64,000 nt of DNA from Octopus sinensis. Its lineage: Eukaryota. The translations under genes and the position numbers were made by a program. This document shows, one piece after another, positions 27,437-31,039 of the stretch. The notes below the pieces were generated by a model. That model had not been told where the DNA came from. It did no database searches and saw nothing but the letters and a program-made list of their open reading frames with translations. The stretch lies in contig NC_042998.1 of NCBI RefSeq assembly GCF_006345805.1, positions 43,958,001 through 44,022,000 of the forward strand, read 5' to 3'. How positions within the stretch are numbered: the first letter of the stretch is position 1; each line of letters begins with the position of its first letter.

Positions 27437-29746
27437 TTAGAGTATGTTTAGTTGTGGTCTGTATTTTTGAATAAGATTACTTTCCTTATTTATTCGTGTT
27501 TGGTCTGTGGTGTTGTCCGAGCATTGGTATAGTGGGAAGACTAAGAATTTGGGGGACCTATTGTGTGCACAAAGGTCTAAGTGTCCACTTAGTGGTATCT
27601 GTCTTGTGGAGGGGTCCCTCATTTGTTGTCGGTGAACTGTCATTCTGTCTCTGAGGGTAAGGCTCGTTTGCCCTATGTAATCTTCGTGGCATCCTTCACA
27701 CCTTATGACGTAGAGTAAATTTTTTGATGCGCACGTGAAATTATTTTTTATGATGAATGTGTGTCCCGAGTGGAACTTGTACGATGATCCCTCAATGAGG
27801 TGGATGCAGGTCTTGCAGTTGGGGCGACCACATTTTTTGATGGTGGGCGGTGGGTTTGTGTTGTGTAATTTTGCGTTGGTGAGGAGGTTTTTTAGGGATT
27901 TAGGTTGTCTCTTACTTTTTATTATTTTATGAGCTGCCAGTATTTTTTTCAGGCGTGGGTCTTGATTTAGTTGTGGAATGTTGTTGTATATAATAGTGTA
28001 AGCTTCTGCATTCCTTGGGTTGTGTGTTGAGAGATAAGGGAGGCTATTGACTGTACTGTGGATGTGTTTGGGTTTTCGAAGGTCTTGAATGTTGATTGAT
28101 TTGGCCCGTTCTATTCCGTTGTCTACTAGTGATGCCGGGTAATGTCTTTCGAGAAGAATTGCCCTTAGTTCCCGGAGTCTTCTATTTCGTGTTGTGTCAT
28201 TTGAGACATAGTGCAGATTCTTCTCGCTAGGTTGAAGGGGATATTTGTCTTTGTGTGTTTTGGGTGATTGGAGGTGAATAGAAGGTATTGTTTAGAGTCA
28301 GTGGGTTTGTAATGGATGTCAGTTTCAATGTTGACGCCTTTTTTAATGATTAGGATGTCAAGAAAAGGGAGTTGGTCCTGACTATATTCCATTGTGAATT
28401 GAATGTTTTTATTTACACTGTTGATAAGGTTTTTGAAGTCTAAAGTTGGTCGAGTGTGTGGGACCATAGGATGAGGCAATCATCTAAGTAGCGTTTCCAG
28501 TTCTCCAACAGGTATTTGTGGAAAGACTGGCCGTACTTATATTTGGATTTTTCATAGATATGTGATTCCAGGTAGGCCATCACCAGGTTTGCATAGGTAG
28601 GTGCAACTTTCGTATCCATTGCAGTTCCTGAGACCTGTCTGTAAGTGTTGTTGTGGAAATACATGAAGTTGTTTTGGCAGAATAAATTTGAGGCCCTCAA
28701 TTATGAATTCTTTTTTAATTCTTTCCGGGATCTCATTGGGATATTTATCCAGCCAGAATTTAATGGCTTCCAGTCCAAATTCATGTGGGATTGTGGTGTA
28801 AAGATTAATAACATCAAAAGAAACGATTAAGGTGTCTTTATCGGCATGTTTGGGGAGATGGTTTAATAGGTCCAGGTCATCTCTTACAATACTTGGAATG
28901 TGTTTCAGTATTGGCTTTAAGATGATATCTATAAAGTTGCTAAGTCTGTGTGTTTCACAACTTGGGCCTGCCACTATTGGTCTCAGTTTGAGATCAGTGG
29001 GATGTGGTATAGTGATGCAGGTTGAAGTGGACTTTTTGCAAGCTTCTGTGATATTTGACTCTTGTGTATTTTTGGAAGCCCATAGAGTGTGCTGGTTTTG
29101 CAATTAAATTTAGTAATGTAGTCGCATTCCTTTGCTGTCAAGTCCTTCCGGTGTTGGTAAATGAGTGCCTTCAGATTGGTCATTGTTTTGGATTGCTGGT
29201 AGTCGACTACTCTTTCGTAGTATGTGGTATCCTCTAAAAGGAGAGATACAGAGTTTTTATATTGCTCAGTATTCATAACAACGACCGTACTACCCTTATC
29301 AGCTTCCTTTATTGTGACGTCATGATTGTCTCGTAGCGTATGGATGATTTCCCATTCTCTTTTACTGGTGTTGGGTTTGAGTTTAGGTTGTGGGAGTTCA
29401 CCATAAGGGAAGTTGGAGATGTAATCGCAAAATTTGTCTAAGGTTTTGTTTTTGCCTTTTTGGGATTATAGTTGCTTTTGTTACAGACCATTGATTCGTC
29501 GATATTATTAGTTTTCCTGTCAAAAAATTCCTCTGTGAGGCGTAATTTTCTGCAAAAGTGCGAGATGTCATCCTGTATTTCCCTCAGGTTAGGGTATTGC
29601 GGAGTTGGGGTGAATTTTAGTCCTCTTGAAAGAATTTTTATTTGTGGTGTCGACAGGTTTAGGTTAGAAAGATTCACTATTTTTGTTTTTTCGGGGTTGG
29701 TATCTACCATCTGGTGTCGTGGAAACTGATGCCCTTGCCTAAAAAA
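27437..29746 (-). pseudogene. PLE-1 pol: reverse transcriptase + Cys-rich linker + GIY-YIG endonuclease, with multiple 1-nt frameshifts
   Basis: IVNLSN..LSRGLKFTPTP, EADKGS, LYGLPKIHKS, LRPIVAG, SFDVINLYTTIP, GTAMDTKVAPTYANL, WKRYLDDC, LPFLDI, HYKPTD, CGRPNCKTC, CASKNLLYVIRCEGC..YIGQT, RMTVHRQQ, ending KYRPQLNIL. Confidence 0.95.
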
Positions 29747-31039
29747 GGAATCCTGGGGGTTCTTCTATTTGCGGTATTTTGCTGTATGTGATTCTGTCCC
29801 CCGTTGACATGTCTGTTGAAGAGGTTTTGGTTGTTGTGATTCTGTCCCCCGTTGCTATGTTGTCTGTTGAGGAGGTTTTGGTTGTTCCAGGGTCTGGTTG
29901 TTGGTGTGGCCTCCTGGAAGAGTTTTGGTTATTCCAGGGTTTGGGTTTTTTGTCCTGGGTGTAATGTTGGTTCCTTAGAGTGGGTTGGAAACTATATTCA
30001 TGGTTTAGAAGTGAATCCCTATATGTTGGGGGAGAACTCTGAGTTAGGAGCGGTTTTGGGTTGGAATCTACAATCATAGTTCAGAGATGGGTTTCTAAGT
30101 GATGGGTAGGATCTCCGAATCTGGAACGGTTCTTGTGTGGGTTGGGGTCTACGTTGTCTGGTAAAGTTTTGTCGTGTGTGATGGGTGTCTCGGTTCTTTT
30201 GATGGGATTGTAGTGCTGTCTGTAAGTTCTGTTGTTGTTGTTGTCGATGTTAGGGGTGGTGTGTGTTCGGTGTTTTGTTGGTTTTTCTTTGTTTTTGGCG
30301 AGGGGCGTGAGTTGAAGTAGATATTTTAAAATATGGGTTGCTTGAAAGGTGTTCCTTTGTGAACTCTGTTTCATAATTGGGAACCAGCTGTTTTTTTCCA
30401 TTCGCTGAGGGATGTTATTTCTTCATCCTCGCAGTTTTTTCTCCAGAGTTTGGTGGTTTCATCAAGGAGTGCTCCTTCACAGTGTTTTGAGATTTCAATC
30501 TGCATTTCATTGTCAAGGGTCTTGGATTTTTCTTCACTGGCGTTGGCTCTGAGCCGCAAGAGTTCTACTTCCGTTTTGAATTTTTCAAAAGCTAGTTTCT
30601 CCCTGAGGTTTTTTTGGTTTTCTGGTTCATTTTGGATGGGTTTTATTTGTAGTTTTCTGGGTAGGATGATAGGGGTGGAGTTGAGCCACTTTTCATAAAT
30701 GTCAGCTTTGTTGTTATTTTTTATGAAATTCCAGAAGGCAAACTTACGCGCTTTGAGATTTTTACTCCAGGTGTTGTTAAGAGAGCTTTTAATTGAGAAG
30801 CAGTCTTTAGTTTGCTCCTGCTTTGGGAGCACTGCCGTCTCTATGGATTTCATTAGGTTTTGCAGTGTTGGATGATGTCAGGGATTTGATTGGTTGTTTT
30901 GGCCTCCATGAGTCCATTTAGGTATAAGTGCGATTGTTCGACATTGTTTATTATGGTTGAAAGTTTCGAGAGATTTCTTGTAATTTTTTAGGATATTTTG
31001 GTTCATTAAAGATTCTGCTTGTTGTGATTTGGGTGGCAT
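29704..31039 (-). pseudogene. PLE-1 upstream ORF1 (helical/coiled-coil domain plus low-complexity tail), frameshifted
   Basis: Co-linear ORF pieces 30878-31099, 30371-30853, 30081-30401 and 29739-30077; ATG at 31039; heptad-like LREKLAFEKFKTEVELLRLRANASEEKSKTL. Confidence 0.7.

Follow-up and report, generated by a model that had tools for sequence, protein, structure and literature searches.

The window analyzed here, a stretch of 64,000 nucleotides from Octopus sinensis (contig NC_042998.1, positions 43,958,001 to 44,022,000), carries on its minus strand, from 31039 to 27437, what by its sequence is a decayed copy of a young Penelope-like element (PLE) with a GIY-YIG endonuclease and a linker of the Neptune/Nematis type. 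Upstream of pol, which encodes the reverse transcriptase (RT) and the endonuclease, lies a separate open reading frame (ORF1). From phase and conservation, we consider it very probable that -1 programmed ribosomal frameshifting (PRF) on the heptamer U UUU UUA joins ORF1 to pol. On this heptamer a minority of ribosomes would shift back by one base and make an ORF1-RT-endonuclease fusion, and most would terminate shortly after. The features of the junction are as follows.

29704..31039, minus strand: ORF1, 447-448 amino acids in intact copies; nine indel sites break the window copy
29896..29897, minus strand: copy-specific one-base deletion (missing C in CC), which takes the upstream ORF1 piece of the window out of the slip frame
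29740..29746, minus strand: slippery heptamer T TTT TTA in ORF1 phase; -1 frameshift site predicted from phase and conservation
29708..29710, minus strand: in-frame pol ATG, not conserved; overlaps the ORF1 Arg-Trp codons
29704..29706, minus strand: ORF1 stop TAG, by codon count 11 sense codons after TTA (clade mode: 10); candidate queue stimulator
27437..29746, minus strand: pol (RT, linker, GIY-YIG) in the -1 frame; broken in the window copy, about 776 amino acids from the heptamer in intact relatives

The junction of ORF1 and pol

A DNA search with the element, in which 40 of 177 candidates were scored, gave 42 matches, and 30 loci including the window were fetched. The majority vote over these 30 copies yields one continuous ORF1 of 447 codons, ending in IPFLGKGISFHDTRW-stop, and ORF1 is intact in two natural copies (L015 and L018) among the 12 that span it; the separate ORF1 upstream of pol that the original prediction had proposed is borne out by both. 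In the majority consensus, ORF1 is open through the heptamer and pol lies in the -1 frame, which is already open 6 codons before the heptamer. A single continuous ORF1-pol frame, which the prediction had named as counting against itself, is excluded by the vote.

With nine indel sites in ORF1 and five in the aligned part of pol (down to 28000), the window copy is dead. Its minus strand reads, as had been described, CCT TTT TTA GGC, with T6A at 29746-29740, the ORF1-frame TAG at 29706-29704, and an ATG at 29710-29708; the -1 frame, TTT TTT AGG CAA, runs into MVDTN..IVNLS and the RT. The base missing from ORF1 had been placed in the run of C at 29755-29759. This run is C5 in 25 of the 29 other copies, shorter in four, and C6 in none; C5 is thus normal, and C6 as the original state is excluded. 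The real gap is a C at 29897-29896, present in 27 of the 29 other copies and in contigs of 4/4 sequencing runs. A +1 slip at CTT TTT TAG, the apparent frame of the window, is an artefact of this missing C.

T6A is retained in 27 of the 29 sister copies, with T7 (by substitution) in one and T5 in one. An ORF1 protein search of the same genome, in which 150 of 1411 candidates were scored, provided 40 divergent loci, picked for long open frames and variety, irrespective of the junction. The junction was alignable in 34 of these, with TTTTTTAG in 33 and CTTTTTAG in one; L092 also carries TTTTTTAG, and five of the 40 loci were without a junction that could be found. The 34 junctions represent seven further families (grouped by eye), whose ORF1 cores are 49-68% identical in pairwise comparison. 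The 3' halves of ORF1 in these seven families are only 13-18% T and the flanks of TTTTTTAG are unalignable; conservation drops around the eight invariant bases, except for a CA immediately 5' in 7 of 8 families. Pol is at -1 in every divergent locus whose ORF1 is open to the junction. A distant ORF1 query of the same genome returned mostly known loci, and the junctions in the new loci were all of the L071 family.

Beyond this genome, searches with the pol alignment gave four metagenome loci and one locus from a genome collection, five loci in four lineages; the ORF1 alignment had no match in metagenome and viral contigs. The outside lineages have T6A (L101, L102, and L103/L104) or, in the same place, T6G (L120). 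Both L102 and L120 have a homologous ORF1 and no AG after the heptamer (TTTTTTA-T and TTTTTTG-T, respectively). L120 lies in a bacterial genome bin (a Bacteroidota metagenome-assembled genome), probably as eukaryotic contamination; it is a two-ORF element of the Neptune type, with one stop in ORF1 and the heptamer T TTT TTG. The junction has the X XXY YYZ form of a PRF site in the 0 frame, with the -1 frame open from the heptamer. Heptamer and -1 phase are conserved in relatives, and the ATG at 29710, whose use as the start of pol would also have counted against the prediction, is not.

All eight families of this genome have AG after T6, including those that differ in the pol residue (Arg or Ser), as would be expected if TTTTTTAG were a 3' splice acceptor and pol were translated from spliced RNA; introns do occur in PLEs (PMC8557442; PMC4209133). 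L102 and L120, which lack the AG, argue against a splice acceptor. Phe-Leu is followed by a residue other than D, E, G, A, or V in 22 of 85 ORF1 proteins, so that the codon of this residue is not G-initial, and a rough weight matrix found no conserved, well-scoring phase-2 GT donor in six families. Contigs of probable RNA runs cross the junction unspliced in two families, with no joint on the site, although the RNA status of these runs is guessed and rare forms are lost in contigs. We regard splicing as highly improbable. At L078:2613-3836, three probable RNA runs give contigs of 3' pol at far greater depth than elsewhere, one with an internal deletion of 190 bases; these contigs possibly stem from a non-autonomous derivative.

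Slippage of a polymerase on T6, during transcription or reverse transcription, could add a base and fuse the frames in the RNA. The homopolymer is indeed conserved, and the single T7 and T5 copies among the 29 would fit; however, six T's are short for polymerase slippage, both the phase in ORF1 and the X XXY YYZ pattern (T6A or T6G) persist, and no inserted T occurs at the site among the contig rows listed. There is little chance that this accounts for the fusion.

A pol-frame stop occurs within 11 codons upstream of the heptamer in 9 of 12 lineages and within 11 codons downstream in 0 of 12 (Fisher p 3e-4, for lineages that are related to each other), a pattern that points to the heptamer as the start of pol translation. 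Pol might instead be reached by termination and reinitiation, or by independent initiation, near the ORF1 stop, at ATG 29710 or at a non-AUG codon, as for LINE-1 ORF2. A fixed stop position would suit this, and ATG stands at pol codon 12, the one overlapping the modal ORF1 stop, in 3 of 8 families (those matching ATG 29710), with ATA, CTA, CTG, or TTG in the rest. However, none of the four lineages with DNA whose ORF1 stops ten codons after the heptamer has an ATGA overlap (ATAG, ATAA, CTAA, and ATAG), and the first pol Met is more than 100 residues in for 5 of 12 lineages (L066, L074, L102, L120, and the L071 family via L078): at residue 154-155, inside the RT, in intact L066 and L078, at 174 in L102, and at 138 in L120. 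Reinitiation would also leave unexplained the invariant heptamer and the absence of stops from the pol codons before codon 12 (0/12, against 9/12 upstream), and we consider it very unlikely.

No hairpin or pseudoknot stands out 3' of the heptamer in the eight families. The 60 nucleotides after the heptamer have minimum free energies of 0 to -9 kcal/mol (z -0.6 to +1.2) and 5-13% U, and in 12 of 12 lineages a scan for simple H-type pseudoknots gave nothing better than shuffled sequences. The downstream structure had been called weak by eye, which agrees with these results; the catc/gatg stem that had been pointed out in the window folds no better than shuffles and is not upheld as a stimulator. 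There are isolated exceptions: in L066 a GGGG pairs with a distant CCCC (z -2.1 at 150 nucleotides), and the outside lineage L103 has a 6-bp stem. The stimulatory hairpin or pseudoknot 5-9 nucleotides downstream that belongs to canonical PRF was thus not found.

Distance from the heptamer to the ORF1 stop

If frameshifting occurs, the slip may be stimulated by a ribosome queue at the ORF1 stop, a possibility to which we give somewhat less than an even chance. The next ribosome would be kept waiting on the heptamer by one that is terminating 10-11 codons further on (or by a queue that begins at 20 codons). If UUA and the stop are 10 codons apart, the follower would run into the terminating ribosome while translocating off UUU/UUA. 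Alternatively, the slip would depend on basal slippage at U6A alone.

ORF1 homologues form 886 clusters (50% identity) at E 0.001 or better, and the counts that follow come from the 150 of these that were listed. Phe-Leu, the heptamer's reading in ORF1, falls within the last 45 residues in 84 of the 113 listed homologues of at least 250 amino acids; further up its frequency is 0.0018 per position. Removal of four query members and five hand-picked truncated or fused rows (P0004, P0059, P0077, P0119, and P0138) left 75 cluster representatives. Of these, 24 end exactly 10 residues after Phe-Leu and none earlier, with seven ending at 20-21 and seven at 30-31. In a FastTree phylogeny the stop-at-10 state is concentrated in one clade of 40 sequences (support 95), which contains the family of the window. 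Within this clade, 25 sequences stop at 10, and those ten residues are only 10% identical; seven stop at 20, and in 10 further sequences the eleventh codon encodes Trp. Four stop-at-10 lineages have DNA, and among them the first conserved motif of pol follows at varying distances (NL at 24-27), so that in this small sample the stop position seems to be tied to the slip site and not to the RT.

In a subclade of 13 sequences, the ORF1 tail (window 29707-29718) has a conserved D-T-[RG]-W, with the Trp codon (TGG) exactly at the stop position of the sister lineages. A single A-to-G change separates TGG from TAG or TGA. This Trp codon may act as a pause site or mark a readthrough that became fixed.

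A ribosome that pauses at a UGA stop increases -1 slipping by the ribosome behind it in E. coli reporters, with a peak at a 9-codon spacer (PMC6815119). Disomes in mouse liver have their A-sites 30 nucleotides apart (PMC7397865). Queuing at 30 nucleotides before stops has been reported, though the mouse-liver study saw few disomes at stops (PMC7397865).

Several observations weigh against a queue or against an efficient slip. The stop-at-10 state changes 12 times on the tree, compared to 20-26 times in five shuffles; such clustering points to one old inherited state rather than to many origins, and p-values for the count over 75 sequences are overstated. The sister group of 45 sequences has tails of 10-40 residues without a peak at 10 (2/45), and the window's own family stops after 11 codons, not 10. 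ORF1 stops coincide with pol codons of the form xTA/xTG, and the stop at 20 coincides with pol K-I-I-N in some families, so constraint on the pol amino acids could contribute to the spacing. In two of the five rows removed by hand, Phe-Leu was just 2 and 6 residues short of the end, and the profile used (A1) included four tails with Phe-Leu and may favour such matches. The efficiency of the slip may be low because no stimulatory structure was found, and in E. coli a higher ribosome load reduced frameshifting at the IS3 pseudoknot (PMC6815119).

Weighing both sides, we propose only tentatively that this is a natural eukaryotic -1 frameshift in which a terminating ribosome, not an RNA structure, would act as the stimulator, the stop being kept one or two ribosome lengths downstream across a large Neptune-type clade. 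Were this true, the ratio of ORF1 to RT would be set by ribosome traffic and termination speed.

The ORF1 protein and the architecture of the element

The structure prediction that had been proposed for ORF1 returned an all-helical core and brought out no specific structural relative; a disordered tail follows the core. The modelled 161-amino-acid core has four long helices (pLDDT 90); fold searches with this core gave no Foldseek hit at E 0.001 or better and, at best (Z 8.5), generic helical bundles. A Pfam search of five ORF1 proteins gave no match. With respect to capsid, zinc-knuckle, RRM, and esterase domains, the five proteins have no Pfam match, and the 161-amino-acid core model, the only part compared by fold, has generic helical matches. 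Because of its position and make-up, including a low-complexity, basic, disordered tail, ORF1 is predicted to be an abundant partner in a ribonucleoprotein particle or oligomer.

In translation and domain search the order of domains is RT, C-x4-C-x2-C linker, and GIY-YIG. The further features of the element are listed here.

30315..30796, minus strand: conserved all-helical ORF1 core (ends approximate), then a low-complexity tail rich in R/N/Q/P/H; no Pfam match, no specific fold match
27806..27832, minus strand: C-x4-C-x2-C linker motif of the Neptune/Nematis type, from the translation, as defined in PMC8557442
27452..27718, minus strand: GIY-YIG endonuclease domain with CCHH residues (PF01541, E 1.8e-4, 22.2 bits, just below the cut-off of 22.6)
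31109..32374, minus strand: 5' pseudo-LTR (long terminal repeat), microsatellite-rich; direct repeat of 25240-26574, by repeat comparison
25240..26574, minus strand: 3' pseudo-LTR, by repeat comparison; weaker similarity reaches about 27284
32370..32624, plus strand: inverted pseudo-LTR piece at the 5' end of the element, by repeat comparison; 98% identical to 31061-31315
31159..31192, minus strand: minimal hammerhead-like motif with U3-A8 core and palindromic stem III, by pattern match; a second copy starts at 32493 (plus strand)

The linker reads CGRPNCKTC in the window (27832-27806) and CGRPNCGIC in L062, and as defined at the sequence level it places the element with Neptune/Nematis (PMC8557442). 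In the endonuclease, the CCHH residues comprise C-EG-C between both tyrosine motifs, then H..H. RVT_1 is above the cut-off in L062 and L078, and GIY-YIG is just below it in the window and L062 (E 2e-4 to 4e-4). Two traits set the element apart from Athena/Terminon, which are marked by the lack of an endonuclease and by telomere attachment: the GIY-YIG domain is present, and the copies are spread over many contigs of the 2.7 Gb genome.

The window shares the U3-A8 hammerhead core pattern with 26 of 41 related loci; a U3-A8 hammerhead variant has been described for PLEs (PMC4209133). Around the UUGANAA (U3-A8) core, which is CUGAUAA in L094, stem II is compensating and stem III palindromic, in most cases ACCGGT or ACATGT. 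The Rfam search gave no hammerhead hit, only microsatellite-driven matches below the cut-off. A long-loop hairpin (CTCGTG..CACGAG-like arms, approximately 31045-31105), folded without a shuffle control, closes about 10 nucleotides before the ORF1 start. A hairpin is likewise found ahead of the ORF1 ATG in L015, L062, L066, L071, and L072, and may be a translation or promoter element.

Elsewhere in the window there are two long near-perfect inverted repeats, at 5102-6218 (444 nucleotides at 98%) and at 40065-42771 (299 nucleotides at 99%, 2.1 kb apart), each probably another mobile element. A dispersed repeat of about 200-260 nucleotides, resembling a short interspersed element, occurs in both orientations at 12049-13215, 23511-23706, 34844-35279, 38836-39060, 43310-43505, and 60328-60520.

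Comparison with known systems

The element resembles the endonuclease-positive Neptune and Nematis PLEs in its RT, its C-x2-5-C-xx-C linker, and its C-terminal GIY-YIG domain with CCHH, as well as in the direct and inverted pseudo-LTRs, the minimal hammerhead motif, and the microsatellite setting (PMC8557442; PMC3846280). It thus shares with canonical endonuclease-positive PLEs the GIY-YIG domain after the RT, CCHH, pseudo-LTRs, and a hammerhead motif, and departs from them in not having a single ORF. These elements are described as single-ORF (PMC8557442; PMC6431247), whereas the octopus element has an ORF1 of about 450 amino acids that overlaps pol at -1. The killifish Neptune has a 420-nucleotide ORF1 that is non-overlapping, with no frameshift mentioned in the available portion of PMC12602865, and differs in this from the overlapping ORF1 of the octopus. 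Esterases have been reported in Neptune-like PLEs of fish and molluscs (PMC5408684). The single-ORF view of endonuclease-bearing PLEs is thereby corrected for a very large family (the 886 ORF1 clusters), and if frameshifting occurs, the annotated "RT ORFs" in these elements are without their real N-terminus.

The octopus element shares with PLEs whose ORF1 is separated by a frameshift a helical or coiled-coil-like ORF1 joined to the RT by that frameshift; it differs in having an endonuclease and no pseudoknot. The legend of Fig. 1 in PMC8557442 names PLEs with "ORF1 separated by a frameshift with a pseudoknot", which we take to be the endonuclease-negative Athena/Terminon elements; were Neptune among the clades so marked, the layout with two ORFs would be known already, and the novelty would lie in the structure-free mechanism alone. 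No paper on a Neptune frameshift was found in the literature, a search that lay outside repeat databases and key PLE papers, so that a prior description is possible. In the supplement of Craig 2021, "frameshift" and "ORF1" occur only in the Chlamys rows.

The gag-pol-like expression that had been proposed fares well in the -1 offset and the heptamer in slip phase, from which we infer frameshifting, and fails in any fold-level link of ORF1 to Gag. The element shares with HIV-1 gag-pol the heptamer U_UUU_UUA (PMC5009743), the -1 register, and the structural-to-enzyme layout. HIV-1 has a downstream hairpin (PMC2794165), whereas none was found in the octopus element; moreover, the octopus ORF1 is without a Gag or capsid match, and the element is not a virus. 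The 0-frame stop of SARS-CoV-2 has been proposed to let the pseudoknot refold (PMC8168617), unlike the role in a queue proposed here.

The one direct demonstration of queue-programmed frameshifting that we found is in synthetic bacterial reporters. In the dozens of natural slip sites that Neptune-type elements would provide, which vary in sequence, are free of structure, and conserve the distance to the stop, frameshifting by queues at stop codons could be tested in eukaryotes. In the E. coli collision reporters, as would be the case here, the heptamer lies about one ribosome length before the stop and structure is not needed (PMC6815119). Those reporters are engineered and bacterial and have a 9-codon optimum, whereas the octopus case would be natural, conserved, and eukaryotic, with 10 codons.

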